The position numbers and the translations under genes are program-made. Of a DNA stretch of 42,965 nucleotides, positions 15,622 to 36,562 are shown piece by piece. Numbering within the stretch: the first letter of the stretch is position 1; every line of letters starts with the position of its first letter. The stretch is from a virus (lineage: Duplodnaviria; Heunggongvirae; Uroviricota; Caudoviricetes): the IMG/VR virus record IMGVR_UViG_2687453530_000006, positions 1-42,965 of that record; one strand, 5' to 3'. The notes beneath the pieces were generated by a model. The model searched no databases. It worked only from the letters and a program-made list of their open reading frames with translations, and was not told where the DNA came from.

Positions 15622-16193
15622 CGTTTTATCACAATCCTCAGTTGTTGTTTCAGCGCATAGCCCAGTTCTTTTGGCAGACGTTCTCGCCGGATACGGTTAA
15701 CGTTCTCATCAAAAGCCTGCTTCAGTGGGGCCGCCATCGGAATTTTAACCACCTGAATGGGAAGACGATTACGCTTTTTCCTTCCTTTATCGTCATTGCC
15801 CTTCGCATACCGGGCTTCTGGCAAACGTTGCATAACATGCCAGCGCCCATTATTTAATCGCTGGATGAATGCCCGCTGATAACGATGCTGACCGGCTTTA
15901 AGTATGCTGTTCGGACGATGACCAAGCATCCTGATCCCCAGCTTAATAGCAGGGAGATCACCGCGGTTAACGATAATTTTTGCGTTCGGATTTCTGACCG
16001 TAGCCCTTTTCAGTCTGGATCGCTCTTTAACAAGTTTTCTCGGCACCCGGGTTTCACGGGCGACCTGAGACGAAGACTGATTAATCGCCGTTGTGGCCAC
16101 GCGGTTAATGGCCATTGCTGACGCACCGGGCACCGCCGTTTTGCTGATACGACTGAGGTTTTCAACGGCCTGCTCAAGACCTTTTATGGACAT
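15618..16193 (-). CDS. Z: Tail completion protein Z
   Basis: 191-aa ORF starting MSIKGLEQAVENLSRISKTAVPG and ending [22 protein letters not shown]. Confidence 0.85.
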   Translation of the reverse strand: MSIKGLEQAVENLSRISKTAVPGASAMAINRVATTAINQSSSQVARETRVPRKLVKERSRLKRATVRNPNAKIIVNRGDLPAIKLGIRMLGHRPNSILKAGQHRYQRAFIQRLNNGRWHVMQRLPEARYAKGNDDKGRKKRNRLPIQVVKIPMAAPLKQAFDENVNRIRRERLPKELGYALKQQLRIVIKR

Positions 16194-16204
16194 ACATCCC
16201 CCTT

Positions 16205-16558
16205 TCAGCGGCGACGGTTAACGGCAGGCGGTACGCCCCGCCCAAGCCAGAGATGACAGCTTCCGCCATCATCCGGCGAAATCCGGTCTATCCAGAAGTT
16301 TTCCTCACCGATGCTCAGCGTGTCGCCGCGCCGCAGCTGCCGCACATCATCAGTCCGGACAAACAGGGACGGGCTGGAGCCTTCAACGCGCACGCCCTGT
16401 CCGGCATAGCTGATATTTTCAGGGTCATCAAAAACACCACGTATTACTGCGCCGGACTGCTCACCGGATGTCATGGTGGCTGACGTTCCCATGTACCCGC
16501 GTATCGTTTCATCGGCGCGGGCAATGGCAGCATCGAACAGGTTATCGAAATCAGCCAC
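16205..16558 (-). CDS. FII: Head-tail joining protein FII
   Basis: 117-aa ORF starting MADFDNLFDAAIARADETIRGYMG. Confidence 0.85.
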   Translation of the reverse strand: MADFDNLFDAAIARADETIRGYMGTSATMTSGEQSGAVIRGVFDDPENISYAGQGVRVEGSSPSLFVRTDDVRQLRRGDTLSIGEENFWIDRISPDDGGSCHLWLGRGVPPAVNRRR

Positions 16559-16569
16559 AGCGCCTCCCG

Positions 16570-16965
16570 TTATTGCATTCTGGCCAGGCCGCGCTCTGTC
16601 ATTTCAGCTGCCACACCGGCAGAGACACGGAACGCCGTTCCCGGCAGCACAAATGCCACAGCCTCATCCCGCGTGGCGTGAAGTGCATCGGTATGCAGCG
16701 TCACCAGTGCCACAACCGTGACCAGATCAGCCGTATCAGTCACGGTATCCGGCTGCGCTGATACAACCTCATTTTCATGTCCGGTCAGCGCATTTTCCGG
16801 GCTGACAGATGTGTCCTGACCGGCAGCGTCATCCGTGTCATCAAGCTCCTCTTCCAGCTCTGCCACACGGAGTGCCAGTTCTTCTTTCGTCCCCGTCAGG
16901 CTGACATCACGGTTCAGTTGCTCACCCAGCGACCGGAGACGGGCAATCAGTTCATCTTTCGTCAT
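16570..16965 (-). CDS. FI: DNA packaging protein FI
   Basis: Start placed at the internal Met (MTKDELIARLRSLGEQL), preceded by a GGAGGAG ribosome-binding site; the ORF extends upstream to 17004. Confidence 0.8.
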   Translation of the reverse strand: MTKDELIARLRSLGEQLNRDVSLTGTKEELALRVAELEEELDDTDDAAGQDTSVSPENALTGHENEVVSAQPDTVTDTADLVTVVALVTLHTDALHATRDEAVAFVLPGTAFRVSAGVAAEMTERGLARMQ

Positions 16966-17006
16966 GGACTCCTCCACAGAGAGAAAATGGCCCCGAAGGG
17001 CCACGA

Positions 17007-18032
17007 TTACGCCAGTTGTACGGACACGAACTCATCAGGGTCAGCCAGCAGCATCAGCGGTGCTGACTGAATCATGGTGAACTCACGCGCCGGATCGCCG
17101 GTGGTCACCCAGTTTTTCGGGTAACGGGCAGAGGCGTTAATGCCTTCGCGCTGTGCGTCCGCATCCTGAATGCAGCCATAGGTGCGCAGACCGCGTGCCT
17201 GAGTGTTCCCCAGTACCATCGTGTTGTCCGGCAGGAAGTTCTTTTTGACGCCGTTTTCCACGTACTGTCCGGAATACACGACGATGGCCACATCGCCATA
17301 CATCCCCTTATAGGACACCGCTTTACCCAGGTCTTTCACCGCTGTCTCCAGCTCGGAATGAGAGCCGCGACGGGTATCCAGCTTCTCCCTGACGGCCTTG
17401 AAGGAACGGAACAGCGCCCAGCCTTTCGGATCAAACACGATGATATTCACCACGCCGCTGGCGTTCAGCGCGTAGGCTTCGATATCGTCGGTCGGGTCAT
17501 ACGTGGACTTGTCACGCTTGCTCCACTCCGTGCCGCCGGACTGCGTGATGTTGTTCGCCGCACTGCGGCCCATATCCACCTCAACCGGATCGAAGGCTTC
17601 ACCGGTCATGGTGTATTTGCCCTTGAGCACGGCAGAAACGGCCTGCATCTCTTCGACCTGAGCAATGGCCAGCTCTTCGTCACGCATGTTCTGCATGATG
17701 ATGCGACGGCGGCGGTAAGCCGGGTCCGCCAGATTCTGCGGATCTTCATCCGGCAGGCGACGCAGGGTCATCTGCGGATTCACCTCATGCTTGGGTTTGA
17801 CATATCCCGGCGTAAATTCAGAGGTGGAGCCGCCACGGGAGCGGATAACCTCACCGGAAACAATCGGCGAAACGTACAGCGCCATGTTTACCAGTCCCGG
17901 AATTTGTGAGAGATAGACTTTCTCCGTAGTGAAGGGATAGCTCTCACGGAAAAAGAGACGCAGAAACAGCGGATCAAACTTAAATTTCTGCTCATTTGCC
18001 GCCAGCAGCTGGGCGGTTGTGTACATCGACAT
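17007..18032 (-). CDS. E: Major capsid protein E
   Basis: Start placed at MSMYTTAQLLAANEQKFKFD (341 aa) as in lambda E; the ORF extends upstream to 18059. Confidence 0.9.
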   Translation of the reverse strand: MSMYTTAQLLAANEQKFKFDPLFLRLFFRESYPFTTEKVYLSQIPGLVNMALYVSPIVSGEVIRSRGGSTSEFTPGYVKPKHEVNPQMTLRRLPDEDPQNLADPAYRRRRIIMQNMRDEELAIAQVEEMQAVSAVLKGKYTMTGEAFDPVEVDMGRSAANNITQSGGTEWSKRDKSTYDPTDDIEAYALNASGVVNIIVFDPKGWALFRSFKAVREKLDTRRGSHSELETAVKDLGKAVSYKGMYGDVAIVVYSGQYVENGVKKNFLPDNTMVLGNTQARGLRTYGCIQDADAQREGINASARYPKNWVTTGDPAREFTMIQSAPLMLLADPDEFVSVQLA

Positions 18033-18087
18033 AAAAAAATCCCGTAAAAAAAGCCGCACAGGCGGCCTTTAGTGATGAAGGGTCAGG

Positions 18088-18420
18088 TTAAACGATGCTG
18101 ATTGCCGTTCCGGCAAACGCGGTCCGTTTTTTCGTCTCGTCGCTGGCAGCCTCCGGCCAGAGCACATCCTCATAACGGAACGTGCCGGACTTGTAGAACG
18201 TCAGCGTGGTGCTGGTCTGGTCAGCAGCAACCGCAAGAATGCCAACGGCAGCACCGTCGGTGGTGCCATCCCACGCAACCAGCTTACGGGTGGCGGTGTC
18301 AAGCATCAGCGGGGTCATTGCAGGCGCTTTCGCACTCAATCCGCCGGGCGCGGTTGCGGTATGAGCCGGGTCACTGTTGCCCAGTGGCTGGTAATGGGTA
18401 AAGGTTTCTTTGCTCGTCAT
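18088..18420 (-). CDS. D: Head decoration protein D
   Basis: Start placed at [12 protein letters not shown] (110 aa); the ORF extends upstream to 18426. Confidence 0.9.
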
Positions 18421-18429
18421 AAACATCCC

Positions 18430-18825
18430 TTACACTGGTGTGTTCAGCAAATCGTTAACGGCATCAGATGCCGGGTTACCTGCAGCCAGCGGTGCCGGTG
18501 CCCCCTGCATCAGACGATCCAGCGCAGTGTCACTGCGCGCCTGTGCACTCTGTGGTGCAGCTGCCAGAATGCGGCGGGCCGTTTCCACGGTCATACCGGG
18601 GGTTTCTGCCAGCACGCGGGCCTGTTCTTCGCGTCCGTGAGCCTCCTCACAGTTGAGGATCCCCATAATGCGGCTGTTTTCTGCCGCAACCGCAGCGGTG
18701 ATCTGCGCGTTCACGTCCGGCTGTGCCGCGCTGGCGTTCTCGCCCTCCGTCGCTTGCACCACGCCAGTAACGTCAGCCTGCGAAGCAGTGGCTGAAACAG
18801 TTGTTGATTGAGTCTCTTTGGTCAT
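18430..18825 (-). CDS. Nu3: Scaffolding protein Nu3 (in-frame internal start within C)
   Basis: Internal Met beginning MTKETQSTTVSATASQ, 131 aa in frame with the C-terminus of C, as in lambda. Confidence 0.65.
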   Translation of the reverse strand: MTKETQSTTVSATASQADVTGVVQATEGENASAAQPDVNAQITAAVAAENSRIMGILNCEEAHGREEQARVLAETPGMTVETARRILAAAPQSAQARSDTALDRLMQGAPAPLAAGNPASDAVNDLLNTPV

Positions 18826-19729
18826 TCGCCCTCCTGAGAGACGGGATTTACGTGCATCCAGTGCATCACGCATGACGGTGATCGCATCGGTACTGTTAAC
18901 AAGTTCATCAGCCAGTCCGGCATCAATGGCCTCCTGACCGCTGTACACTGCAGCCTCGGTATCCAGCACAGCCTGCACGGACAGGCCGGTATATGCCGAC
19001 ACCTTCTGTGCAAACATCCGGCGGGTTGCATCCATCCGGGACTGCAATGTTTCCCGGACATCATCCGGTAGATGGCTGTAGGGGTTGCCATCCACCTTAT
19101 GGCTGCCGCTGTAAATCAGCGTGATTTCCACGCCCTGTTTCTCCAGCGCAGCGCCGTAATTACTGTGAGCCATCATGACGCCGATGGAGCCTGTCCGGGC
19201 GGTCTGCGTGACCAGACGCCGGGAGGAGGCACTGGCAAGCAGCTGACCTGCGCTGCAGTTCATGTCATTGGCCAGCGCCCATACCGGCTTTATGTCACGC
19301 ACACGGGCGATGATGTCAGCGCAGTCAAATGCCCCTGCCACCATCCCGCCTGGCGTATCCATATCGAGCAGAATGCCGTCCACCATCGGGTCGCTGGCAG
19401 CCTGTTGCAGACGGGCGATAATGCCGTTGTAACCGGTCATCCCCGAATACGGCTGCAGCGCCCGCGTCCGGCTGACCAGCGTGCCGGACACCGGCAGCAC
19501 GGCGATGCCGTTCATGACCTGATAACTGCGGGCCTGTCGTGGTCCGTCATCATCACCGGATAACGCCAGCGTCGCGGGTGCCTCTCCGGCAGTCAGGCTG
19601 TCGCCGGACACCGCATCCGTCAGGCGGCTGATCCCAAGCTGGCCTGCAAGTGCACAAAAGAAAACCCGCGCATAGGCGGGTTCAAGCATCAGCGGCTCAT
19701 TAAAGGCCATGCTGGCAATATGCGGGAGA

Positions 19730-19749
<20 letters not shown>
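18430..19749 (-). CDS. C: Capsid assembly protease C (S49 family)
   Basis: ORF 18430-19884; start placed at the GTG codon (19747-19749) encoding VTAELRNLPHIASMAFNEP, matching the lambda C N-terminus as recalled; overlaps the end of B. Confidence 0.85.
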
Positions 19750-23430
<3,681 letters not shown>

Positions 23431-23456
<26 letters not shown>

Positions 23457-23976
23457 TCAGCAACCCCGGTATCAGTTCATCCAGCGCGGCTGCTTTGTTC
23501 ATGGCTTTGATGATATCCCGTTTCAGGAAATCAACATGTCGGTTTTCCAGTTCCGGAAAACGCCGCTGCACCGACAGGGGGATCCCGTCGAGAATACTGG
23601 CAATTTCACCTGCGATCCGCGACAGCACGAAAGTACAGAATGCGGTTTCCACCACTTCAGCGGAGTCTCTGGCATTTTTCAGCTCCTGTGCGTCGGCCTG
23701 CGCACGCGTAAGTCGATGGCGTTCGTACTCAATAGTCCCTGGCTGGAGATCTGTCTCGCTGGCCTGCCGCAGTTCTTCAACTTCCCGGCGCAGCTTTTCG
23801 TTCTCAATTTCAGCATCCCTTTCGGCATACCATTTTATGACGGCGGCAGAATCATAAAGCACCTCATTACCCTTGCCACCGCCTCGCAGAACGGGCATTC
23901 CCTGTTCCTGCCAGTTCTGAATGGTACGGATACTCGCACCGAAAATGTCAGCCAGCTGCTTTTTGTTGACTTCCAT
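23431..23976 (-). CDS. Nu1: Terminase small subunit Nu1
   Basis: 181-aa ORF starting MEVNKKQLADIFGASIRTIQNWQEQGMPV (winged HTH); first gene after cos. Confidence 0.9.
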
Positions 23977-24200
23977 TGTTCATTCCACGGACAAAAACAG
24001 AGAAAGGAAACGACAAAGGCCAAAAAGCCCGCTTTCAGCACCTGTCGTTTCCTTTCTTTTCAGGGGGTATTTTAAATAAAAACATTAAGTTACGACGAAG
24101 AAGAACGGAAACACCTTAAACCGGAAAATTTTCATAAATAGCGAAAACCCGCGAGGTCGCCGCCCCGTAACCTGTCGGATCGCCGGAAAGGACCCGCAAA
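23977..24200 (-). other. cos region (cosB, cosN, cosQ); cosN 12-nt cohesive end at 24154-24165
   Basis: Plus-strand aggtcgccgccc at 24154-24165 is the reverse complement of lambda cosN GGGCGGCGACCT; flanking sequence resembles lambda left and right ends as recalled. Confidence 0.85.
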
Positions 24201-24364
24201 ATGATAATAATTATCATCTGCATGTCACAACGTGCATCTACGCCATCAAACCACGTCAAATAATCAATTATGACGCAGGTATCGTATTAATTGATCTGCA
24301 TCAACTTAACGTAAAAACAACTTCAGACAATACAAATCAGCGACACTGAATACAGGGCAACCTC

Positions 24365-24598
24365 ATGTCAACGAAGAACAGAACCCGCAGAACAACAACC
24401 CGCAACATCCGCTTTCCTAACCAAATGATTGAACAAATTAACATCGCTCTTGATCAAAAAGGGTCCGGGAATTTCTCAGCCTGGGTCATTGAAGCCTGCC
24501 GCCGGAGACTGTGCTCAGAAAAAAGAGTTTCTCCTGAAGCAAACAAAGAAAAGAGTGACATTACTGAATTGCTCAGAAAACAGATCAGACCAGATTGA
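24365..24598 (+). CDS. Small ribbon-helix-helix-like protein (lambda right-end ORF homolog)
   Basis: 77-aa ORF; basic N-terminus and NIRFPNQMIEQINIALDQ...WVIEACRRRL pattern typical of RHH folds; sits next to cos as in lambda. Confidence 0.6.
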   Translation: MSTKNRTRRTTTRNIRFPNQMIEQINIALDQKGSGNFSAWVIEACRRRLCSEKRVSPEANKEKSDITELLRKQIRPD

Positions 24599-24654
24599 AG
24601 CAATTTAGATAATCGTGCAGACTACACCCCTCATATCACATGGAAGGTACTACA

Positions 24655-25065
24655 ATGGCTCAGGTTGCCATTTTTAAACAAATATTCGATAAAGTGCGAA
24701 ATAATTTAAACTATCACTGGTTTTATTCTGAACTAAAACGTCACAATGTCTCACATTACATTTACTATTTAGCCACAGAGAATATTCATCTTGTTCTTGA
24801 AAACGATAATACGGTTTTAATAAAAGGACAGGGTAAGGTTGTAAATGTAAGATTTTCAAAAAATAAATGCCTTATAGAAGCCACCTTAAAAGGATTCAAA
24901 TCAGGAGAGTTATCATTTTACGAATACAGGAAAAATCTTGCTACAGCAGGGGTTTTCAGATGGATTACAAATATCCACGAAAACAAAAGGTATTACTATA
25001 CCTTTGATAATTCATTACTCTTTACTGAGAACATTCAGAACACTACACAAATATTTCCGCACTAA
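24655..25065 (+). CDS. DUF1398-family protein (lambda right-end ORF homolog)
   Basis: Start placed at [14 protein letters not shown], preceded by GGAAGG; resembles the lambda ORF adjacent to cos as recalled; the ORF extends upstream to 24640. Confidence 0.7.
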
Positions 25066-25133
25066 ATCATAACGTCCGGTTTCTTCCGTGCCAGAACCGG
25101 ACTCGCTGGCATGATGAAATATGTGTACCCTGC

Positions 25134-25631
25134 TCATTGTTGCCCCCACAAACAGACCTCACGCTCAATCTCACGACGAGTCATCAGGCCTTTCCATTGC
25201 TTACCGCCAGCGTATGCCCAGCGACGTAGCTGGTCACATGCGCCCTTGATATCGCCCTGGTTTATTTTGCGAAGAAGAGTAGATGTTCTGAAATTGCCAG
25301 CACCCACGTTGTAGACGAACGAGTAAAGAGCGCCGCGCGTTGTTTCCGGTATATCGACTTTGATGTACGGGTTAATTTGTCTGGCGACAGTGGCAAGGTC
25401 TTTATTCAAGAGTGCTTTGCATTCTGCTTTGGTATACGTTTTACCGAGCATGATGTCTTTTCCTGTATGCCCGTGACATACAGTCCATACACCAACAATA
25501 TCTTTATATGGTATGTAGCTGACACCTTCCAGACCATCGTTACCACTTGGGCCAGTGATTAACACAGATGCTATAGCAATAGCCCCGCCACCAATAGCAG
25601 CAGCAACAGCTTTTCGTAATGATGGAGGCAT
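25134..25631 (-). CDS. R: SAR endolysin (T4-type lysozyme, GH24) of the phage 21 R type
   Basis: 165-aa ORF; N-terminal weakly hydrophobic Gly/Ala-rich SAR segment ([20 protein letters not shown]) followed by a lysozyme domain; start overlaps the holin stop (TAATG). Confidence 0.85.
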
Positions 25632-25846
25632 TATCCACCTCTCGCAGCCTTGCGCTTATCTTCTTTAATCTTGAAATAAAGGTTTGTCAGGTACGTCAGC
25701 AGGCCAAAGACCAGGCTACCCAGCACACCTATTGCTGCCCACTGTGAGGGCGTGACTTTATCGAGCAGCTGTAAAAACCAGTAACCGGCACTACCTGCTG
25801 AGGTGCCATAGGCGACACCCGTTGTTAACTTATCCATGGATTTCAT
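25631..25846 (-). CDS. S: Pinholin (phage 21 S-type) with dual-start motif
   Basis: Start placed at MKSMDKL (71 aa) with a second Met three codons later; two transmembrane segments; the ORF extends upstream to 25912. Confidence 0.8.
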
Positions 25847-25913
25847 AACCCCACCTCGCAGATGCGGGTGCTGTGTAATGGAAATAAAAAGGCCACCTGA
25901 CGTGGCCACCAAA

Positions 25914-26966
25914 TTATTTCCCCACCAGCTCGTTTATCTCTTTCACTGTCTGGTTAAACCGCTCTGACTCAAGCTCAACACCTAAGGCCCGACGCCCCAG
26001 CGCCATTGCTGCTTTTATTGTGGAACCGGATCCCATAAAAAAATCAGCAACCAGATCACCAGGTCGACTACTGGCATTGATTATTTGCCTGAGCATATCC
26101 GCCGGTTTCTCACACGGATGTTTACCCGGGTAGAACTGAACGGGTTTATGCATCCAGACATCGGTATAAGGCACGGAGACTGATACGGAGAAATAGCGCC
26201 GGAGAGATTTAAACTCATCCAGCAATTCAGAATATTTGCGATTCAGTGAATCATAAGATGCCACCAGCTGGTGGTGTGGTTGTTCCAGTTGTTGTTCCTG
26301 AAACTTCTCTGCCGCTATACGGGAAAACAGTGCCTGTAACTTCCGATAGTCAGCCTCATTCGGCAACTGCCACTGACTGGCACCAAACCAGTGGGAAACC
26401 ATATTTTTCTTACCTGTGGCTTCAGCAATTTGTTTTGCCGTTATACCCAGTTCGGCACGAGCATCCCTGAAATACGATATCAGCGGTGCCATTATGTGCT
26501 GTTTGAGTTCCCTTTCTTTTGCCGCATAGCCGTCACTTTTGCCGCGATATGGCCCCTGGTAATGTTCAGCAAACAGAACGCGCTCTGTGGCAGGAAAATA
26601 TGCGCGCAGACTTTCTTTATTACACCCATTCCAACGTCCGGACGGCTTCGCCCAGATGATATGGTTAAGCACGTTGAAACGTTCACGCATCATGATCTCA
26701 ATATCAGATGCCAGGCGATGCCCACAGAACAGGTAAAGGCTTCCGGCAGGTTTTAACACCCGCCAGAACTGGGCCAGACAGTGGTCCAGCCACTTAAGGT
26801 AATCTTCGTCCCCTTTCCACTGATTGTCCCAGCCGTTGGGTTTCACCTTGAAGTACGGCGGATCGGTAACAATCAGGTCAATGGAATCATCAGGCAGGGA
26901 CTGAATAAAATGCAGGCAATCAGCGTTGATTAAATCAACACTGTTTATTTTTACAGTATTTTTCAT
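25914..26966 (-). CDS. DNA methyltransferase (beta-class N6-adenine or N4-cytosine; DPPY motif)
   Basis: 350-aa ORF with [10 protein letters not shown] (motif IV) near the N-terminus and FFMGSGST (motif I, SAM binding) near the C-terminus. Confidence 0.8.
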
Positions 26967-27116
26967 GGATCAGTAAGCGTAACTCTGGTAGGCTCACTCT
27001 GCTTTTGCGCTAAAGCAGTGGGCCGTGGTTCGCTTGTGACCAGTAGGCATGAGCGAATGGCTGGCAGGTGCTACCAACACCCACCAGCCGCCCATTTTCA
27101 CAGCAGGAAACCGCCA

Positions 27117-27320
27117 TTACTGGCAGCGTCTGAATTTATTCCCGTACCCGCCGTTATCCTTCGCCAGACCCGCCAGAACTAACTGAGTCAGTATTAACTG
27201 GCACCGGGCTTCGCTTACTCCGGTAGTTCTCGTCATCATGCGTGGCGTTACCCACTTGTCAGCAGGTAAGAAATGAAGGACTGCGGCGGCGGTTTCTGTC
27301 ATATCTTGCTGTTTTAGCAT
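27117..27320 (-). CDS. Hypothetical small protein (67 aa from the internal Met)
   Basis: ORF 27117-27404; start placed at MLKQQDMTETAAAVLHF, preceded by AAGGGA; first ORF of the late region upstream of the methyltransferase. Confidence 0.4.
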   Translation of the reverse strand: MLKQQDMTETAAAVLHFLPADKWVTPRMMTRTTGVSEARCQLILTQLVLAGLAKDNGGYGNKFRRCQ

Positions 27321-27445
27321 GTTTTTTCCCTTCTGGTTAACATGACATACCAATAACTCTTGTCTAAAAAGCCAGCAAGATAAAAAGCCAGTATTCACGA
27401 CCACCAGCGTGTTTACTGTACTGCACCAGGTTTACAGGTACAAAA

Positions 27446-27472
27446 AAACCGCTCAGCGGCGGGTTTAAGTTG
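27446..27472 (-). terminator. Possible tR'-like intrinsic terminator at the head of the late operon
   Basis: On the minus strand, short GC stem (ccgc-tga-gcgg) followed by 7 T; the stem is only about 4 bp, so this is weak. Confidence 0.3.
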
Positions 27473-27588
27473 TGTGGCGAAGTAACCACTCTTAACAGAT
27501 TACAATGTTTTTTGCGGACCGCGCTAATGATTTCCTCTTTTTTTTGTTGTATTTTTCACACGGTTGCTAAAATTATTTCGGATCGATA

Positions 27589-28530
27589 ATGAGTACAGAA
27601 AATAAGAATAAAACTAGGCGAGTGAGAGTTGGTTTTTTCACTGGTAATGGAAGCAAAAAAGATGGCACATCTGCTGCAAAACTAGCCTTTGAGCAAATGA
27701 CCACAGCAGATACTGTAACTTTTCCAATAACTTACACAACAGACACCCCAAATCGAGGGTTAAAGTTAGTTATTCTTCAAAAAGATACCACACTGCAATG
27801 TTACTTTGGTTACGTATCGTGGAGAAGGGAATGCCTACTACCGTTCATCGAGGATGCTACAGGTAGTGAGAGAACAATTCCTTTAAATGATAAAGATTCT
27901 GTAGTTGAAAGAACATATTTTATCTATTACTACGAAACGGATTTATTAGCTATGACCCTCAACCATATAGGGCCCAAAGTAAATGATCTGGCATTCATTT
28001 TGTATAACAAAACTGATTTAAAAAGCGTGACTTTTGAAGCCATTTGGAAACAAGAGAGCATGAAGGAACTGCTTGAGGACGGAAATATCCTACGTAGTTT
28101 CGATCTTATAGTTGCTGCTCCAAGAAACTTTAACAAAGCTAATTATAAGATTAAAAACCCTTTAGCTAATGAAATTATTGACATGGTTGTTGGTATGGGC
28201 GGGTCGCATCTAAGATTAAATATGCGAGGTCGGATTCGCCCGAAAAAACAAGGTTTTAACTATCTAAAAACTTCTGTCACCGATGCTATTAAGGAACTAC
28301 TTGAACTTTTTCCAAAAGGTTCTGGAGGTCTAAAAATTAAAAAAATTGATGTAACCGAGCCATCCAATAGAACGCCCAAAAGTCTACTTGACCAAGTATT
28401 GGTCAGTACAAAGACAATCATTGTCAAAAGCGGTTATCCATCCGATTCTGATATCAGAACGGCGATGATATCTGCTAAAATTGATAACGCGAACTATCTT
28501 GCACAGTATGAGCTCGCTAGCAGAGACTAA
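27589..28530 (+). CDS. Hypothetical soluble protein, candidate RexA-like sensor of a two-gene module
   Basis: 313-aa ORF in an AT-rich block, opposite in orientation to surrounding late genes; basic N-terminus; the stretch HIGPKVNDLAFILYNK resembles a lambda RexA segment as recalled (unverified). Confidence 0.45.
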   Translation: MSTENKNKTRRVRVGFFTGNGSKKDGTSAAKLAFEQMTTADTVTFPITYTTDTPNRGLKLVILQKDTTLQCYFGYVSWRRECLLPFIEDATGSERTIPLNDKDSVVERTYFIYYYETDLLAMTLNHIGPKVNDLAFILYNKTDLKSVTFEAIWKQESMKELLEDGNILRSFDLIVAAPRNFNKANYKIKNPLANEIIDMVVGMGGSHLRLNMRGRIRPKKQGFNYLKTSVTDAIKELLELFPKGSGGLKIKKIDVTEPSNRTPKSLLDQVLVSTKTIIVKSGYPSDSDIRTAMISAKIDNANYLAQYELASRD

Positions 28531-28539
28531 TAACCAAGC

Positions 28540-29001
28540 ATGGAGGACACAATGAGAGAATTAGCCACTTTTCTCTGGAAATGCGTCCTCTGGATTCTGT
28601 TGACCTATGCAGCGACAAAACTGTTTAAACCGATGAAGCATGCTGACGTACTCACAACAGCGGGGGTGCTCTCGACTATATCAGGCATCCTGTTTGGTTT
28701 TGTTCTGGCTGCAATATCTATATTTAGTAGTGCAAACAGCGATAAGGAAGGAGCAATTAATGCCCTTAAGCAAAACAACGTGTTACCAACTCTGGTAAAT
28801 CGATTACTTTCAACAGGGTTAACTCTCATCGTCGCATGTATATTTCCATTGATAGCGATGTTTCTACCAGATGATGTTATTGTTGCGGGCAAACCTATTG
28901 ATTTCCTATTCATACTGTTAGGCTTATCCTCCCTTATAATTTCGCTATATACCTTCGGAAGGTGTTGGTTAGTGTTACGAAAAATCTTCCCCCACTTGTG
29001 A
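28540..29001 (+). CDS. Small four-helix membrane protein, candidate RexB-like effector
   Basis: 153-aa ORF 10 bp downstream of the 313-aa gene; four hydrophobic segments of about 20 residues; alternative start at 28552 after GGAGGA. Confidence 0.45.
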   Translation: MEDTMRELATFLWKCVLWILLTYAATKLFKPMKHADVLTTAGVLSTISGILFGFVLAAISIFSSANSDKEGAINALKQNNVLPTLVNRLLSTGLTLIVACIFPLIAMFLPDDVIVAGKPIDFLFILLGLSSLIISLYTFGRCWLVLRKIFPHL

Positions 29002-29030
29002 CAGGTTGGCCTCATATGGGGCCAACCTGT
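29001..29030. repeat. Perfect 11-bp inverted repeat (hairpin) between convergent genes
   Basis: acaggttggcc - 8 nt - ggccaacctgt, lying between the stop of the membrane-protein gene and the stop of Q. Confidence 0.7.
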
Positions 29031-29036
29031 GCAACC

Positions 29037-29405
29037 CTAAGCGTCCATTTCAAGGTTAACATCCAACATTGAAAGGCAACCATCAATAAATCCTTCGGCT
29101 AGTTGTATTTCTATGCGTACCAATTTTTCATCCTTTCCACGCACCTTTGCAATCTTACGCTTGGATATTCTGTATAAATAATGTGCCACAAGCAGCGAGT
29201 GCTCATCTGGCTTTTTTTGCTTTAGACGAGCAAGACAACCTTCAATAATTAATGCATCACTATCTGAACAAGCCTGACGTGTTTTGCTTGTGTAGGGAAG
29301 AAGCCCCTTAAACCCAGCAGCTATAGGCGAATAGTCTACTCCAGAACTATCACTCGCCGCCCATGCTCCCCAACGCTCCAGAACCATCTGAATATCACGC
29401 ATCAA
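29037..29405 (-). CDS. Q: Late-gene antiterminator Q (QuuD/Q82-like family)
   Basis: 122-aa ORF starting MMRDIQMVLERWGAWAA, resembling E. coli prophage QuuD-type antiterminators as recalled. Confidence 0.75.
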   Translation of the reverse strand: MMRDIQMVLERWGAWAASDSSGVDYSPIAAGFKGLLPYTSKTRQACSDSDALIIEGCLARLKQKKPDEHSLLVAHYLYRISKRKIAKVRGKDEKLVRIEIQLAEGFIDGCLSMLDVNLEMDA

Positions 29406-29419
29406 CTTTCTCCACCAAA

Positions 29420-30415
29420 TCAGGCCAACACACCAATCGCCAGCGCGCGATCGATAAAACGAAATATCAGCTCCAGTTGGGAGCCATACTTCTCTTCAAA
29501 TGCCACGGTATCCGCATGCAGCTCGTCGTGATGCTTTCTGCACAAAGGCAACACAAAGAGGTCATGCACTTTTGTATCCATTCCACCCTGACCGTGACCT
29601 ATCAGGTGGTGGGGATCATCAGCAGGCTTTCCACAACATGCACACGGCTGTGTCTTAACCCAGCGCGTGTACTTTTCATTAACCCAGCGGCGGCGTTTTG
29701 GGCGTAACATAAAAGACTCCGGCGACTCCGGATCCACTTTCAGCGCCAGCACCTTTTTCGCCTTATCCTGGATGATGCTGGTGGCAGGAACCGAAGGCAC
29801 AAGGTCACTTTCCCGGGTGACAGACGGCACAACAGGCTTCGGTAATCTCAGTGCCTTACGGGCTGCACTTTCCGGTAAGGCATCTGCCAGATCATTACGA
29901 ATCAGCCACCAGCACAGTTCCGGCATTGTCACAACGTGACTATCATCAAAACCGAGATCCCGACGCACAACAGACAACACCCAGCGGGCACAGTTATCCG
30001 TTGCCATTGATTCCAGCCGTTCCGTGAACTGATCGCGAAGCTGGTTATCGCAGTGCCAGCACAGACGGATTGCGCCCGGCGCGTGTCGCATTGTGGTCAT
30101 GTTCTCGCTGTGCCAGTCGGAATGAGGCCACTGGCAGCCTTTTTCACGAAGTAACCAGCTTTCAAGACATTCCACCCCACCAGCACGACGAATCACTGCC
30201 TCATTACGGAACACGGCCAGAACGGCAGGATCATCCGCCAGCGGTTGTGATGCCGCAGGAACGGCACCACTGGCGAAAGATGAATAACGCTCCGGCTCAG
30301 GCTCCAGCAGAACACGCCCCTGCATAAACAGGGGCATCAGCTCTGAACCTGGCCTGAACAATACGATCCCCATACGCGGGGCTATTTCAGGGGTCAGTAG
30401 TGCTCTCACGGTCAC
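29420..30415 (-). CDS. DUF968-family protein (YdfU-like) with C-terminal Cys/His HNH-like motif
   Basis: 331-aa ORF; C-terminal CACCGKPADDPHHLIGHG...CRKHHDELH; adjacent to Q as ydfU is to quuQ in the Qin prophage as recalled. Confidence 0.6.
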   Translation of the reverse strand: MTVRALLTPEIAPRMGIVLFRPGSELMPLFMQGRVLLEPEPERYSSFASGAVPAASQPLADDPAVLAVFRNEAVIRRAGGVECLESWLLREKGCQWPHSDWHSENMTTMRHAPGAIRLCWHCDNQLRDQFTERLESMATDNCARWVLSVVRRDLGFDDSHVVTMPELCWWLIRNDLADALPESAARKALRLPKPVVPSVTRESDLVPSVPATSIIQDKAKKVLALKVDPESPESFMLRPKRRRWVNEKYTRWVKTQPCACCGKPADDPHHLIGHGQGGMDTKVHDLFVLPLCRKHHDELHADTVAFEEKYGSQLELIFRFIDRALAIGVLA

Positions 30416-30416
30416 C

Positions 30417-31214
30417 TCAATGAACGGTATCGAGCAGCTTTAACAGCTCAGGGAATCGGGATTCGAAGAAATGCGGCTGCGTCTCGCGCGGATTTGCGGG
30501 ACTGGTGATGTTCTTGCCGAACATGCAGCCTTTCGCCGTCAGCGACCAGAATTTTTTAATGTTGTTAATTGCGGTACGGCTGTATCGTTCGCGTTGTTCA
30601 ACGATCCCCAGCTTCACCATCTGGTGATATGCCTGATTAGCCGTAAGGCGGATACCATACTGTTTCAGCAGTGCACTCAGCGACAGCGTGGGGCGACTTG
30701 AGCCATCAGGCGCGTCAGCAGGAGCATCAATGGCATAGCGCGGTGCCAGATTCGGTAAGCCAACAGCCTCCTGAAGCTTCTGACAGGCTCCAAGCACTGA
30801 TGAGTTAGACAGGTTTAATTCCCTGCGCATAAAGTCCAGCAGGATCACGCCAGCCTGCATCTTGTCAGCAGCCTGCCCGGATATTTTTTCCGGTGTGCTG
30901 GTTACCATATCGAAAGTACGGATCACCTTCAGATGGAATGACGGGCTGATCCACATTGCATAGGCATACACCAGTTCTTTGCAGACATACGTCCCCTGGT
31001 TATTTCCGCCACGAATAACGTTAACTGGCTCTATATTGACCGAGTTGCAAATCTGCAACTCGCTTATTAAACGTTCAGTTTGCTCATTGCGGAGCCAGAA
31101 TGCAGGCTTATGCTTATCCAGAGAACCGGCAGCCCTGTGCAGATCGTTCAGGCTGTAACGCCCATAAGCATCACGACGAACTTCAATACCATCAATGACC
31201 ATCAGATTATTCAT
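30417..31214 (-). CDS. KilA-N domain protein (Roi/antirepressor-like)
   Basis: 265-aa ORF; N-terminal MNNLMVIDGIEVRRDAYGRYSLNDLHRAAG...FWLRNEQT pattern typical of KilA-N/Bro-N DNA-binding domains. Confidence 0.65.
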   Translation of the reverse strand: MNNLMVIDGIEVRRDAYGRYSLNDLHRAAGSLDKHKPAFWLRNEQTERLISELQICNSVNIEPVNVIRGGNNQGTYVCKELVYAYAMWISPSFHLKVIRTFDMVTSTPEKISGQAADKMQAGVILLDFMRRELNLSNSSVLGACQKLQEAVGLPNLAPRYAIDAPADAPDGSSRPTLSLSALLKQYGIRLTANQAYHQMVKLGIVEQRERYSRTAINNIKKFWSLTAKGCMFGKNITSPANPRETQPHFFESRFPELLKLLDTVH

Positions 31215-31233
31215 ACTTCGTTTCTCCTCTTAA

Positions 31234-31623
31234 TCAGGCGGCTGCACCCGCCGTTTTCTCGTACTTACTGATAGTGATCTCGACCTTCCCTCCCGGGATA
31301 ACCGGTCCCCACTCCACCAGCATTCTTTTCACCTGACTGTCGTCTTCCCACACACCCGCGTGGGTCAGGGCGTCAAACAGCGCCTTGTTATAGTTGTCCA
31401 GATCGCGGATCCGGTTATCCGGAGGAAACAACACGATCTCCACTGAAGCAGGTGCCGACGTTGGTTTCGGCAGACGACGTAACTGCTCAACTATTGCTGC
31501 GCACGCCGCGCTCTGGAATTTTCGCCCCGCCGCGCTTATCAGACTCTTACCAGCAAACGCCCCTTTGTTGGGGTGTCGCCAGTACGTGTTCACGCTGGGC
31601 GGGAAAGGCAAGATCAGCTTCAT
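31234..31623 (-). CDS. rusA: Holliday junction resolvase RusA
   Basis: 129-aa ORF with PPSVNTYWRH and RDLDNYNKALFDALTHAGVWEDDSQV motifs characteristic of RusA. Confidence 0.85.
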   Translation of the reverse strand: MKLILPFPPSVNTYWRHPNKGAFAGKSLISAAGRKFQSAACAAIVEQLRRLPKPTSAPASVEIVLFPPDNRIRDLDNYNKALFDALTHAGVWEDDSQVKRMLVEWGPVIPGGKVEITISKYEKTAGAAA

Positions 31624-31946
31624 ACTTTCAGGCCTCTCTCATGTAACCAGTGGGCTGCACGCAGCCTGGCGTTTTCCTCACCGGCAAGCAGTGCGCGGAT
31701 AATCCCGACCGCCTCGCTGTCGTCGTCCTTCACCGCGGTATGAAGCGTTATCCCCCGGGCCACGCCACGCTTTATCGTGATGACGCCTTTTTTCTCCAGT
31801 GCACGAAGATGCTCTACCGCTGCATTCACTGAACGGTATCCCAGCATGGTTGCCACCTCCTGATTGGTTGGCGGGAAGCCACGTTCTTTCTGATAAGAAA
31901 TCAGCATATCCAGCACCTGCTGCTGGCATTGAGTTAACGTCGTCAT
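31620..31946 (-). CDS. LexA N-terminal DNA-binding-domain-only protein
   Basis: 108-aa ORF; LTQCQQQVLDMLISYQKERGFPPTNQEVATMLGYRSVNAAVEHLRALEKKGVI closely parallels the LexA winged-HTH domain as recalled; no S24 peptidase domain. Confidence 0.75.
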   Translation of the reverse strand: MTTLTQCQQQVLDMLISYQKERGFPPTNQEVATMLGYRSVNAAVEHLRALEKKGVITIKRGVARGITLHTAVKDDDSEAVGIIRALLAGEENARLRAAHWLHERGLKV

Positions 31947-32596
31947 GCCGCCATCTCCCTGACCAGTTTTTCTGCCTGCTGGCGAACCTGCGCCAGAAAG
32001 GCCTCACCACATGCCTCAAGTTCATCGCGCCCGATGTAGCTGATTGCCGGTCCCTTCCAGGTCTTGTCGAAAACAGCAATAGCACCAGCGAAGAACGCAC
32101 CTGTCGGCACCTGCTTCTCATCCTTCGGGATAAACCAGGCAGGCAGTTCAAAACCAATACGCCCGCGAATAAAAGCAATATGATCTGCATCTTCCGGCCA
32201 CCACACTTCGCTGGTGGCAGCTTTGATCAGGAAAACATAGCGCCCGCCTTTATCACGCATGGCACTGGCATGCTTCATGATGTAACGCATGCCGGTGATG
32301 TATTGCCCCTCATGCTGACTGGCGCGGCTGTATGGGGGATTACCAAAGGCAGCACCTTTAAGCTCCGCAAGACGTTCTGACCAGTCATGCGCCAGCGCGT
32401 TGTCTTCCGCCGTGTAATACGCGGCACATTTGGCGTTATCACCGTCAGTGAACAGATCCAGAACAAACGGACCAAACAGGGTGTTAATTCCCCAGAAAAT
32501 GTTATCCGGCGTGCGCCACTGATCGCCCACTTCCTTCAGTTCATGGGCTGGTTTATTCCGCAGTTCCACCAGCGCCTGGCAATATTTATTACTCAT
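31943..32596 (-). CDS. Phage Dam-type N6-adenine DNA methyltransferase (NPPY motif)
   Basis: ORF 31943-32629; FGNPPYS motif; start placed at MSNKYCQ, where the ATG overlaps the upstream stop (TAATG); alternative start at 32629. Confidence 0.75.
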   Translation of the reverse strand: MSNKYCQALVELRNKPAHELKEVGDQWRTPDNIFWGINTLFGPFVLDLFTDGDNAKCAAYYTAEDNALAHDWSERLAELKGAAFGNPPYSRASQHEGQYITGMRYIMKHASAMRDKGGRYVFLIKAATSEVWWPEDADHIAFIRGRIGFELPAWFIPKDEKQVPTGAFFAGAIAVFDKTWKGPAISYIGRDELEACGEAFLAQVRQQAEKLVREMAA

Positions 32597-33090
32597 TAAG
32601 CCCCCACGTAATTCCCTGACAGATACCACTCTTCACCCGATGCAGCGCGCTTGCTGCTTTTCCGTAAACACTGCTCACGACGCGCCAGAAAATTGTTTCG
32701 TTCTGGCTGGGAGTGGCTTTCACGGAATGCCGCCATCCACACCGTTGCAGCACGACGGTATAAGCCCCTGGACTCCAGTTCTTCCGCCTGGCGGGTCAGG
32801 CACAAAATCACCCGCGGGTCGTTAGTGCCGACATAGAAATTGCGCACAGGTCTGGTTTCACGAACTGGTTGTGGTTCCGGCTCCTGCGCTCTCTCAGTCA
32901 GGCGTGGGAAATGTCTGCGTGTATCTCCTTCACAACGGTGAGCCACACGCCCACTCTGACGTAACTTGCTTGCTGACTGCAGAACGCGCTGCCGTGAGTA
33001 ACCTGCAAAAGCATCCGCAATGTCTCCGGAAGTACACCCCGGATGGGCTTCAATGAATTTCTGAACTTCATTCAAAAGACTCATGATCAC
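32596..33090 (-). CDS. Hypothetical protein (possibly PerC-like regulator)
   Basis: 164-aa ORF translationally coupled between the replication gene and Dam; contains a YRRAATVWM motif; family assignment uncertain. Confidence 0.4.
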   Translation of the reverse strand: MIMSLLNEVQKFIEAHPGCTSGDIADAFAGYSRQRVLQSASKLRQSGRVAHRCEGDTRRHFPRLTERAQEPEPQPVRETRPVRNFYVGTNDPRVILCLTRQAEELESRGLYRRAATVWMAAFRESHSQPERNNFLARREQCLRKSSKRAASGEEWYLSGNYVGA

Positions 33091-33905
33091 CCCCTGAATC
33101 CTGCCGGGATCTGGCTGTAGTCCACGTTGTCGTAACTGGCTTTGAAGTACGGGTCCTCGCGTCTGGCTGCAGATACCGCAGGAACTTCCCAGGATTCTTC
33201 GAAATGACGATCCGGACCAAAGAACGTGACAGCCTGTTTCACAAATTGTGTGCCGCTGTTACCCATCGCAGATACCCAGCCCGCGTAGCGTTTCACACCT
33301 TCCAGCATGGTTTCGGGGTTTACCCCCTCATTCAAACGGGCTTTCCAGGCTTTGAAGGCTGCAGATTTTGAATTGCCACCAGCACGTTTGGGATATGCCA
33401 GCCATGCCTGCTCAAACTCCGGAGAGTATTCCGGTCGGTTTGAACGAACTCGCACGGACTCATCAACTGATGCACCAACAGCTATTGGTTCATTGACTGG
33501 TTCTTTGACTGGTTCAAAAGAGTGACTGGTTCTGGGTGAATCTCCTGCACTACCCCCTGGTGCAACTCCTGCACTACCTGGTGAATTTGCTGCACCAGAT
33601 AGTGAATTATTTGCACTACCCCCTAGTGAATCTCCTGCACCATCCAGATGAAGGAGATAGATATTACTTGAGTTACCTTTTTCACCTTTCCGGGTGACTT
33701 TTTTTACCAGCCCGGACTCACAAAGGGCCGCAATATGATTCATCACAGAACGTTTGCTAATCTCGCACTGGTCAGCAATATGCTGGTAGCTGGGCCAGCA
33801 CTCACCCTGATCGCTGGCATTATCAGCCAGCTTGATCAGAACCAGTTTTCGCAATGGATTACCCACTCGAATTTTCATCGCTTTAACCATCAGCTCCATA
33901 CTCAT
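33087..33905 (-). CDS. Replication initiator (O-like; N-terminal winged HTH) containing the putative origin
   Basis: 272-aa ORF; N-terminal HTH (LVLIKLADNASDQGECWPSYQHIADQCEISKRSVMNHIAAL); Gly/Ser/Ala linker encoded by direct DNA repeats; first large gene after the cII-like block. Confidence 0.7.
   Translation of the reverse strand: MSMELMVKAMKIRVGNPLRKLVLIKLADNASDQGECWPSYQHIADQCEISKRSVMNHIAALCESGLVKKVTRKGEKGNSSNIYLLHLDGAGDSLGGSANNSLSGAANSPGSAGVAPGGSAGDSPRTSHSFEPVKEPVNEPIAVGASVDESVRVRSNRPEYSPEFEQAWLAYPKRAGGNSKSAAFKAWKARLNEGVNPETMLEGVKRYAGWVSAMGNSGTQFVKQAVTFFGPDRHFEESWEVPAVSAARREDPYFKASYDNVDYSQIPAGFRG
33490..33650. repeat. Iteron array (putative origin) inside the replication initiator gene
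   Basis: Three copies of TGACTGGTTC (33493-33532) followed by about five 22-24-bp direct repeats of the form CTGCAC(T/C)ACC...GGTGAA (33536-33650). Confidence 0.65.
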
Positions 33906-34138
33906 GCTGCACCTCCGAGATGCTTCATGTTTTTTCCGGAGCGAAAGGCTATAAGCGGCATACTGACGCGGTAATTACGGCCCAGCGGTTCACAAATCAC
34001 CTTCTGGCATTCACGGTCAACCAGGCTAACACGTAGAACATGCCCTGCAGGTGTGGTGTACCACTGCCCAACTGTAGGAATTGATGTTTTTTTACGCTGA
34101 AATAAACGGTAAATGTTGAGGATCAACGGATTAAGCAT
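33902..34138 (-). CDS. Hypothetical protein
   Basis: 78-aa ORF with start and stop overlapping neighbouring genes (operon-like coupling). Confidence 0.4.
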   Translation of the reverse strand: MLNPLILNIYRLFQRKKTSIPTVGQWYTTPAGHVLRVSLVDRECQKVICEPLGRNYRVSMPLIAFRSGKNMKHLGGAA

Positions 34139-34967
34139 GACGATGCCCTCCGCTGATATTCAGGAGACGGTGAATATGAAAATTAGCCTTATCCGCCAGA
34201 CGAATACGTTCAGCCTGCAAGTTAAGAAGGGTTTCTACCAAAACCTGATGCGCCTGCGGATCCGAAAGAGTTACCTTGCGCAGAGCACGTAGTGCAGTTG
34301 TTACATAACTGAGTTTATGTAAGTCTTCATCATTCAGACGAGTGAGGGCTGGGACAGTAGCCATGATGGCAGCCTCCGATAACAGTGAATTACCTTCACC
34401 ACCGGAAACGCCAATTTCGCTGGTGGTGAACTGAACGGGGTTGGCGTAACCGGCGTTATCGGAAACCGGCGCACCTTTCGGTGCCCCCGTCCAGCCCACC
34501 ATAATTTGGGTGTGCACAGACGCAGACGATAAAAAAGACGCTGGCGCGTCATATATCGCCGATAACATTTCCAGGACGCCAATCCCGGCACCCGCTTTAT
34601 AAGGTGCCTGAACAGTGTAACGTCCCGGAATGGCAGAATCAATGTGCTGGTGGTCCTTCACACTCAACAAAATCACGCCTGAATTTCCACAAAGGACTAA
34701 AGCACTCATGCGGGTAGTCTTTGCGAAGATAGATAACGCGCTGTGTTTCTGGCTCCCAACGAATAACATGAACATAAAGTCCTCTTCCGTCACGAAACCA
34801 GCGGTTAAGTTCCTGCACAACTCGCCCCCCACAGTCAGGTAAAGTTCTCTGTGGTTACTTACAGCCAGGTGATTTGGTAATCTGCATTCATGCCGTAACA
34901 ACAGGTGTTCAGCGACGCTGACCACCAGCTGTTGCGACAAACGGTTATTTGCCGTTAAACTGTTCAT
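34131..34967 (-). CDS. Hypothetical protein (early right operon)
   Basis: 278-aa ORF between the cII-like gene and the replication gene; no recognisable motif. Confidence 0.45.
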   Translation of the reverse strand: MNSLTANNRLSQQLVVSVAEHLLLRHECRLPNHLAVSNHRELYLTVGGELCRNLTAGFVTEEDFMFMLFVGSQKHSALSIFAKTTRMSALVLCGNSGVILLSVKDHQHIDSAIPGRYTVQAPYKAGAGIGVLEMLSAIYDAPASFLSSASVHTQIMVGWTGAPKGAPVSDNAGYANPVQFTTSEIGVSGGEGNSLLSEAAIMATVPALTRLNDEDLHKLSYVTTALRALRKVTLSDPQAHQVLVETLLNLQAERIRLADKANFHIHRLLNISGGHRHA

Positions 34968-35527
34968 GCGTTAGTTTCTCCACAGACACAAAACGCCACG
35001 ACGCCCGGAGCTGCACACTCGCGGGCGTCACTCTTTTCTGGAGCGCAAAAGATTTTGTAGACCAGTGCTGCATGCTCCTGGAGCTTCGAAATTGACAGAT
35101 ACAACTCATCATTAATTGCTGTCTGCTCGTGTGGCTCCACTACCCCATCTTCGATTGCCGAACGAATCTGCTTTGAGTAACTCCCGATCTGTTCGATGAC
35201 TTCCAGCAGGCGCTGGTTTATATCGGCGTTCTCTACTTCCTCAATTTCAGGAAGCGATACAAACACCCCACCAGCAGACTGTGCGACAGCATCCGCAATG
35301 TAGTGAGTGCCAGCCGCGCGCTGTAAAACCATTGCCCATCCCAGCGGGAAAATCTGATCGCCATCTGCACGAAGGCGGTTGAATAAAGCGTTCTCTGTTA
35401 CATCCAGCCACTCAGCAGCTTCAGCGTAACCCCCCGGCAACGCCGCGATAGTTTTCCTGACAGCTTTCACGTACCACTCAGGCTGTTTTTCTACTTTCCA
35501 GTGATGCTTACCCACGGTTAGCCTCAT
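34964..35527 (-). CDS. CII-like regulatory protein (Phage_CP76-like)
   Basis: 187-aa ORF immediately downstream of the cro-like gene; family recalled by size and position only. Confidence 0.5.
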   Translation of the reverse strand: MRLTVGKHHWKVEKQPEWYVKAVRKTIAALPGGYAEAAEWLDVTENALFNRLRADGDQIFPLGWAMVLQRAAGTHYIADAVAQSAGGVFVSLPEIEEVENADINQRLLEVIEQIGSYSKQIRSAIEDGVVEPHEQTAINDELYLSISKLQEHAALVYKIFCAPEKSDARECAAPGVVAFCVCGETNA

Positions 35528-35558
35528 CGTTCTGTGGTTAAAAATTGAAGGTGTTCTG

Positions 35559-36524: not shown

Positions 36525-36536
36525 TCAATGTTTATG

Positions 36537-36560: not shown

Positions 36561-36562
36561 TA

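Follow-up and report, generated by a model that had tools for sequence, protein, structure and literature searches.

Loss of the Rz/Rz1 spanin genes by a short-repeat deletion in an otherwise intact-looking lambdoid prophage of Escherichia coli

Introduction

The lysis cassette of phage 21 and DLP12 combines a PF04971 holin that starts with MKSM, an RrrD-type SAR endolysin with the residues E35, D44 and T50, and an embedded Rz/Rz1 two-component spanin. The genes are joined by the stop/start overlaps TAATG and ATGA. The stretch of DNA analysed here (the window, 42,965 bases) is a lambdoid (lambda-like) E. coli prophage with the same holin and endolysin features, gene order and overlaps. A major difference can be observed downstream of the endolysin: in the window, 12 nt of Rz are left and Rz1 is gone.

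The consequence of spanin loss is known from lambda. When Rz or Rz1 is knocked out, the cells end as spheres enclosed by the outer membrane, which are lysed by shaking, while millimolar divalent cations prevent lysis (PMC6139136). The laboratory lambda Rz/Rz1 nulls (Rz-am, Rz1-am and deletion alleles) resemble the window in that the holin and endolysin are intact and no functional spanin is present. They were, however, engineered in the canonical S105/R context, whereas the window carries a natural 887-bp deletion in a pinholin/SAR-endolysin context, and its phenotype is predicted.

Some phages are naturally spanin-less. phiKT, which encodes the disruptin gp28, and the Acinetobacter phage Petty share with the window the absence of a lipoprotein ORF and of an o- or u-spanin. 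In these phages spanin absence is a lineage trait, accompanied at least in phiKT by a substitute (bioRxiv 10.1101/515445). In the window, in contrast, the loss is recent: all sampled relatives of the lineage have kept the spanin, and no substitute gene was found. In the Shewanella prophage LambdaSo, a seemingly missing spanin is nested between the holin and endolysin genes. Finally, two decaying lambdoid E. coli prophages (L044 in PCP06171 and L026 in GCA_030177775.1) have kept essD and rrrD and lost the DNA downstream through illegitimate deletions with breakpoints of few-bp homology. The window differs from these in that its structural genes are full-length.

Results

Layout of the prophage

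The window is reverse-complemented with respect to the lambda map, and the right end of lambda (48502) aligns at window position 24166. The terminase genes were assigned from their ORFs and the Pfam matches of identical genes in relatives. The following features, in window order, frame the lysis region:

426-8667, minus strand: tail-fibre assembly, side tail fibre, Lom and J
upstream of Nu1 in window order: tail and head genes up to portal and gpW, then the terminase large subunit
21531-23456, minus strand: terL, terminase large subunit
23431-23976, minus strand: Nu1, terminase small subunit
24154-24165, minus strand: cosN cohesive-end sequence GGGCGGCGACCT, identical to lambda
24365-24598, plus strand: YlcI/YnfO-family (DUF3950) gene (PF13132, E 4.9e-21; annotation of the relative L001)
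24640-25065, plus strand: DUF1398 gene, lambdap78/YbcV-like (PF07166, E 3.3e-43; phrog_413), convergent with the lysis genes
25914-26966, minus strand: N6/N4 DNA methyltransferase
29037-29405, minus strand: Q
35850-36524, plus strand: S24 repressor, preceded in window order by nin-type and replication genes
after the S24 repressor in window order: leftward early operon

The structural genes from Nu1 to tail-fibre assembly are all full-length, and the replication and lysogeny genes appear so as well. The spanin deletion is the sole lesion that was detected, and apart from it the prophage looks intact as far as its genes can be read. A PADLOC run on the low-GC gene pair at 27589-29001 gave no match.

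Pinholin and SAR endolysin

The cassette contains two complete lysis genes:

25631-25846, minus strand: phage-21-type pinholin, 71 aa (Pfam PF04971, 'Bacteriophage P21 holin S', Phage_holin_2_1; PHROG holin families)
25134-25631, minus strand: SAR endolysin of the R21/RrrD type (GH24), 165 aa, intact (PF00959, E 1.9e-45)

A first-pass annotation, made from the sequence alone, had described a phage 21-type holin with a dual-start MKSMDKL and an endolysin with an N-terminal SAR segment, and both descriptions are borne out. The pinholin matches PF04971 over profile positions 1-63 of 64 (E 2e-35; 121 bits, with a cut-off of 26). The dual start (Met1/Met4 of MKSMDKL) is read directly at 25846-25826 on the minus strand, preceded by GAGGTGGGG. 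Judging by its family, the protein would form small heptameric pinholes that depolarise the membrane and do not pass the endolysin. The pinholin stop TAA overlaps the ATG of the endolysin by 1 nt (TAATG).

The endolysin is identical to RrrD (PDB 4zpu) at 164 of 165 residues, and the next top match is the phage 21 lysozyme (3hde), over the full length. The catalytic triad E35, D44 and T50 is present in the translation. Residues 1-30, which make up the Gly/Ala-rich, weakly hydrophobic SAR segment, are identical to those of RrrD/R21, and comparison with RrrD revealed no added cationic tail. The exact protein occurs in 184 blocks of the public collection.

Relatives carry an additional 887 bp with Rz and Rz1

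To the left and right of the gap, the window is collinear with its closest relatives: an E. coli chromosome (L001), phage Kati (L002) and the draft assemblies L024, L027 and L029. The window is 100.000% identical to L029 over 16021-25130 and 99.5% over 25126-34066; for L001, the identities of the two flanks are 98.9% and 97.9%. On either flank, L001, L002, L024 and L029 are 97.9-100% identical to the window, without a break as far as 25130, and an additional 887 bp is all that sets them apart from it. Rz with its embedded Rz1 directly follows the endolysin in all these collinear relatives. Their Rz (155 aa; PF03245, phrog_13) has an ATG that overlaps the endolysin stop as ATGA, and the embedded Rz1 (68 aa; phrog_3198) has the lipobox LIMVVGC. 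All genes over 16021-35631 are common to the Rz-bearing relatives, so that nothing new in this part of the window could compensate for the loss.

The region between DUF1398 and the endolysin contains the following elements:

25015-25137, minus strand: 40-aa junk fusion ORF left by the deletion, running antisense into the 3' end of DUF1398
25074-25102: hairpin GTCCGGTT / AACCGGAC, just downstream of DUF1398
25114-25130, plus strand: first six codons (MKYVYP) of a hypothetical ORF of 53/54 aa located after DUF1398 in relatives (hyp54 of L001/Kati)
25126-25130: single remaining TACCC (5-bp direct repeat), the deletion junction
25126-25137, minus strand: Rz remnant, consisting of the ATG in the endolysin stop (ATGA) and codons 2-4 (MSRV); these first 12 nt equal those of Rz in L001 and lambda

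The relatives contain two TACCC copies 882 bp apart and the window contains one, which gives a loss of 887 bp (882 plus one TACCC). At the junction, the relatives read GTGTACCC / GGTAACC...CGCGGT / TACCCTGCTCAT and the window reads GTGTACCCTGCTCAT. The corresponding alignment is:

relatives: ...ATATGTGTACCC / GGTAACCCCGG...(882 bp)...AATCGCGGT / TACCCTGCTCATTG...
window: ...ATATGTGTACCCTGCTCATTG...

The remaining TACCC lies 4-8 bp beyond the endolysin stop, inside Rz codons 4-5, and the endolysin is spared by a margin of 4 bp. In the relatives, the segment missing from the window holds Rz, the embedded Rz1, a 50-aa ORF and most of the 53/54-aa ORF on the opposite strand. A 7-bp inverted repeat, GGTAACC/GGTTACC, is found at its two ends.

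The 40-aa fusion ORF has no TMD, no lipobox and no Pfam or PHROG match, and none of the four junction-fusion ORFs is on record in an exact look-up among about 15 billion proteins. The hairpin at 25074-25102 was rejected as a part of the junction: the relatives have it too, lambda has kept part of it, and it folds with an unexceptional energy (z = -0.68). An insertion in the relatives was also rejected, as their extra DNA is Rz/Rz1 with no mobile element and truncated gene starts flank the junction in the window. Together with the gene remnants and the short TACCC repeat, the fact that the missing DNA is not mobile shows a deletion in the window lineage. We read this comparison as an illegitimate, microhomology-type deletion of 887 bp between the TACCC repeats that removed Rz/Rz1. 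It is recent and private to the lineage of an otherwise intact-looking prophage. Slipped mispairing or illegitimate recombination is the probable mechanism, and the inverted repeat could bring the two TACCC copies together.

The slot between Rz and DUF1398 is the place of bor, a gene on the opposite strand for a 97-aa serum-resistance lipoprotein. The first-pass annotation had reported the lack of bor together with that of the spanin. While bor is indeed absent from the window, it was not part of the deletion: the closest Rz-bearing relatives L001, L002, L024 and L029 lack it too, which places its absence before the deletion, and the 50- and 54-aa ORFs fill the slot in them. More distant relatives have bor, KilA-N, T5orf172, a cold-shock protein (CSD) with GnsAB, or pRha between spanin and DUF1398. 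This slot is a variable moron site.

The window contains no recognisable spanin

With the endolysin stop codon at 25134-25136 and the DUF1398 stop ending at 25065, 68 intergenic bases are left (25066-25133), too few to hold a spanin. As had been noted at first pass, there is no spanin beside the endolysin, and we found none elsewhere in the window. An i-spanin is a type II protein of the inner membrane with an N-terminal TMD and a periplasmic coiled coil; its partner, the o-spanin, is an outer-membrane lipoprotein whose gene is embedded in, overlaps or neighbours that of the i-spanin. Rz and Rz1, each in the version of a close relative and that of lambda, and lambda Bor were compared with the window by tblastn, with an overall best E of 0.07. 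The best E was 0.63 for the i-spanin (two Rz proteins), 0.07 over 11 residues for the o-spanin (Rz1) and 2.9 for Bor (PF06291), for which no lipobox ORF was seen either.

We also scanned all six frames for lipoboxes, from every ATG, GTG and TTG, in ORFs of at least 20-25 aa and in a strict and a relaxed version. The logic is that used by Kongari et al. for calling a phage free of o- and u-spanins (PMC6139136); a non-canonical outer-membrane disruptor that lacks a lipobox would escape the scans used. As positive controls, Rz1 was recovered in L001, and Rz1 and Bor in lambda. The scan of the window returned nothing credible, only short ORFs antisense to or out of frame within large structural genes. 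One of the ORFs returned, at 18668-18811 on the plus strand, was rejected as a chance ORF inside the head protease/scaffold gene (gpC-equivalent, Peptidase_S49). No credible lipobox ORF for a unimolecular spanin of the T1 gp11 type (N-terminal lipobox and C-terminal TMD) was found in any frame. The first-pass annotation had pointed to embedded or overlapping lipoprotein ORFs and unimolecular spanins as candidates, and to a spanin gene elsewhere in the prophage as the observation that would overturn its reading; no credible candidate of the former kinds is present in the window, and neither tblastn nor the lipobox scan found the latter.

A spanin nested between or inside S and R was rejected. 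In contrast to the arrangement in LambdaSo, S and R of the window overlap by one base, and a nested lipoprotein is excluded by the all-frame lipobox scan. The ORFs nested in R have neither lipobox nor TMD and are present in the Rz-bearing relatives too.

Small ORFs were considered in addition. Those in late orientation near the cassette include neither an ORF that begins with a TMD nor a strongly cationic one, and the small ORFs of the window include no candidate for a disruptin of the phiKT gp28 type (about 56 aa, cationic and amphipathic). The 40-aa fusion is the only unassigned ORF in late orientation from the endolysin to cos, and it is acidic-rich. Other small cationic ORFs are antisense, or common to the Rz-bearing relatives over 16021-35631.

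The deletion allele is rare

A 201-bp query centred on the junction was spanned by none of 5,426 complete E. coli genomes, 2,933 of which match one half only, and by none of 50,697 phage records. A 26-mer across the junction is absent from the GTDB species representatives, IMG/VR and the JGI metagenomes. A spanin follows the endolysin in all ten places that encode an identical DUF1398, and in nine of ten places each for an identical endolysin and an identical terL. The exceptions are L026, which has the same deletion, and L034, which has a Tn3 insertion.

The second carrier (L006/L026) is contig SSIT01000005.1 of assembly GCA_030177775.1, found through the exact endolysin look-up only and seen in two samples. 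It is 99.992% identical to the window over 23430-35631 (12.2 kb) and has the same junction. The deletion is thus genuine and inherited from a common ancestor, though rare. In GCA_030177775.1, a 3-4 bp microhomology after Nu1 leads not into terL but into a leftward early operon in inverted orientation, followed by an integrase and fimbrial genes of the host. That copy has therefore undergone a second rearrangement.

An independent deletion is found in E. coli PCP06171 (L044). Its breakpoint, just past the endolysin stop, is no more than about 10 bp away from that of the window, and the deletion runs into the capsid gene. This near-coincidence may reflect chance, a local hotspot or the retention of S and R under selection.

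Discussion

The 887-bp deletion at TACCC took Rz/Rz1, and we consider it quite probable that, as a result, the outer membrane is not disrupted and lysis is conditionally defective. The first-pass annotation had offered conditionally defective lysis as one of two outcomes, and it is the best inference, since no spanin is present beside the endolysin or elsewhere in the window. By analogy with the established phenotype of lambda Rz/Rz1 nulls, the lysis defect is probably of the same kind. After Q-dependent late transcription, the pinholin would trigger and depolarise the inner membrane, and the SAR endolysin would leave the membrane and degrade the murein. Without Rz/Rz1, the outer membrane would stay whole and the cells would round into fragile spheres. 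Phage would be released only by shear, at low divalent cations or with a spanin supplied in trans from another prophage; millimolar divalent cations (Mg2+) or still conditions would block release.

The other outcome put forward at first pass was that outer-membrane disruption is handled elsewhere; the only place left for this is the rest of the host genome. The prophage would then have no spanin of its own and lyse normally in its native host, using Rz/Rz1 from a co-resident lambdoid prophage, for instance one that is co-induced or has a late operon under the same Q antiterminator. Spanin subunits can work in trans, and lambda Rz/Rz1 nulls are routinely complemented from plasmids. Such complementation is described for lambda (PMC6139136). 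The cassette region is matched in 5,139 of the 5,426 complete E. coli genomes, at a median of 2 places per matching genome and a maximum of 14, and in many strains a related endolysin is followed by a spanin from one of several families. Because several lambdoid cassettes are common in one genome, we keep trans-complementation as the main rival, while judging it unlikely for this prophage. A second cassette would lie outside the window, which covers the prophage only, and the late genes of another prophage need their own induction or a matching Q/qut.

Replacement of Rz/Rz1 by an unrecognised, non-spanin disruptor of the outer membrane within the window is highly improbable. In about 13-15% of phages that infect Gram-negative hosts, no spanin can be identified, and phiKT employs a cationic peptide of 56 aa in its place (PMC6139136; bioRxiv 10.1101/515445). 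Several genes near the cassette have no assigned function, and a disruptin-like cationic peptide, a membrane-active tail of the endolysin or the DUF1398, DUF3950 or DUF6731-type genes could be proposed for the role. However, these candidate genes are near-identical in relatives that keep Rz/Rz1, and none is a replacement gained when the spanin was lost. A single ORF is new, the 40-aa junk fusion, which lacks a TMD and a family match, and the near-identity of the endolysin with RrrD leaves no added cationic tail. By our own reading, the 91 spanin-less phages of Kongari et al. include no recognisable lambdoid coliphage (PMC6139136).

The first-pass annotation had placed a mosaic junction next to the endolysin; on this reading, different lambdoid phages would have exchanged DNA, so that a 21-type lysis module came to adjoin a spanin-free right arm of the lambda type. 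Relatives do differ greatly in what lies between spanin and DUF1398, which makes this interval a real hot zone of mosaicism, and on the DUF1398 side the identity with lambda is no more than about 83%. The annotation had the match to lambda end after tcataacgtccggtttcttccgtg (25090), but homology runs about 38 bp further, to 25128; the exact run stopped at 25090 owing to point substitutions only. We rule out the exchange, as near as a sequence comparison allows, since the same relatives match both flanks and differ from the window by the TACCC-bounded 887 bp. Moreover, the breakpoint lies inside Rz codons 4-5 with a 5-bp microhomology and not at a gene boundary, and remnants of the two truncated genes are still present.

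An assembly or sequencing artefact, with the deletion absent from the organism, would account for a junction missing from almost every public collection searched, but it is hardly credible given the identical junction in the independent assembly GCA_030177775.1 and a 5-bp repeat too short to collapse an assembly.

Thus, the loss of the spanin is an ordinary prophage lesion and not a new lysis system. Cassettes of the phage 21/DLP12 type have been studied in depth and the effect of Rz/Rz1 loss is textbook knowledge, so the insight into mechanism is small. A broader meaning would follow if spanin loss with an intact pinholin and SAR endolysin were recurrent and either selected or site-prone, or if the spanin-less phage were fully infectious in nature with the help of trans spanins or shear; we regard this as improbable. 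A site-prone loss would imply a local hotspot around GGTTACCC/GGTAACC. A selected one would imply that hosts retain S-R for purposes other than explosive lysis, such as making spheroplasts or releasing vesicles or cargo. As the structural, replication and lysogeny genes appear full-length, the phage may still propagate, which would argue that the defect is tolerable.

For annotation, the locus indicates that a lambdoid cassette without a spanin is most simply read as a lesion and not as an alternative lysis strategy. A small microhomology deletion, followed by a larger rearrangement in the sister genome GCA_030177775.1, represents an early step of prophage decay. As a natural spanin-null in an otherwise intact pinholin/SAR-endolysin prophage, the allele could be used to gauge the need for spanins outside shaken flasks.

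Spanin deletion and rearrangement in a sister prophage

Besides the window, the only prophage in which we found the spanin deletion is that at L026 (GCA_030177775.1, SSIT01000005.1). This copy contains a second illegitimate junction at 12199-12202, formed at a TAAC microhomology directly past the stop codon of Nu1, which in window coordinates joins 23430 to 37830. Nu1 is present without an adjoining terL. After it come an inverted pL-type operon (YfdP, DUF2303 and onwards to the integrase), which shares 97.2% identity with window 37830-40316, and then host fimbrial genes.

Spanin loss in other relatives

An independent deletion is located near the end of the endolysin gene in E. coli PCP06171 (L044, NZ_CM129872.1), at 2494-2510, equivalent to window 25125-25137. 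It fuses Rz, at approximately codon 4-7, straight to a point midway along the major capsid gene. The breakpoints of L044 and the window are ~10 bp apart at most, and the pinholin and endolysin genes essD and rrrD are again intact beside the deletion, as in the window. The L044 prophage is clearly defective: IS3 lies upstream of essD, and both the capsid and the tail-fibre genes are truncated. The near-coincidence of the two breakpoints could reflect chance, a hotspot or selection.

L021 (GCA_951423045.1) is another defective prophage in which the spanin has decayed. Its Rz is broken into pieces of 44 and 92 aa (11487-11924), and the portal gene is truncated by an insert bearing an integrase.

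Across the relatives L014-L043, the region that separates the spanin gene from DUF1398 constitutes a hypervariable cargo slot. The spanins that precede it belong to at least two families (PF03245 Rz; PF10721 DUF2514 with RzoQ). The slot is occupied by bor, KilA-N/ORF11CD3, T5orf172, a cold-shock protein with YmcF and a GnsAB toxin, pRha, or a pair of tiny ORFs.

Additional features of the prophage

Two terminator-like hairpins are found in the window, both in the orientation of the late operon:
25891-25907 (-), hairpin and T-run (GGCCACGTCAGGTGGCC TTTTTATTT) past the stop of the methyltransferase gene and before the pinholin start
27448-27460 (-), hairpin and T-run upstream of a 95-aa ORF (27117-27404)
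The latter may be the equivalent of tR' downstream of pR'.

Further genes are present at the window ends:
62-310 (+), DinI-family gene (PF06183, E 1.2e-19)
41923-42965 (-), antitoxin-like gene with a SocA/Panacea domain (PF13274), incomplete at the window end, then a 156-aa ORF without a family match
The DinI-family gene is positioned at the prophage end, past the tail-fibre assembly gene. The SocA/Panacea gene and the 156-aa ORF run opposite to the early-left operon, adjoining a PrtN-like gene (41590-41889, +), and may form a toxin-antitoxin or abortive-infection pair.

A low-GC gene pair lies between Q and the methyltransferase gene:
27589-29001 (+), two genes of 39-43% GC that run against the late operon
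The pair encodes a protein of 313 aa (phrog_7651) and a multi-pass membrane protein of 153 aa (phrog_8552). A gene of the same length as the former occupies the same position in the relative L018, where it is labelled PF20505 DUF6731. PADLOC returned no match for the pair. The location and composition of the pair point to a moron, which may be a module for defence or exclusion.
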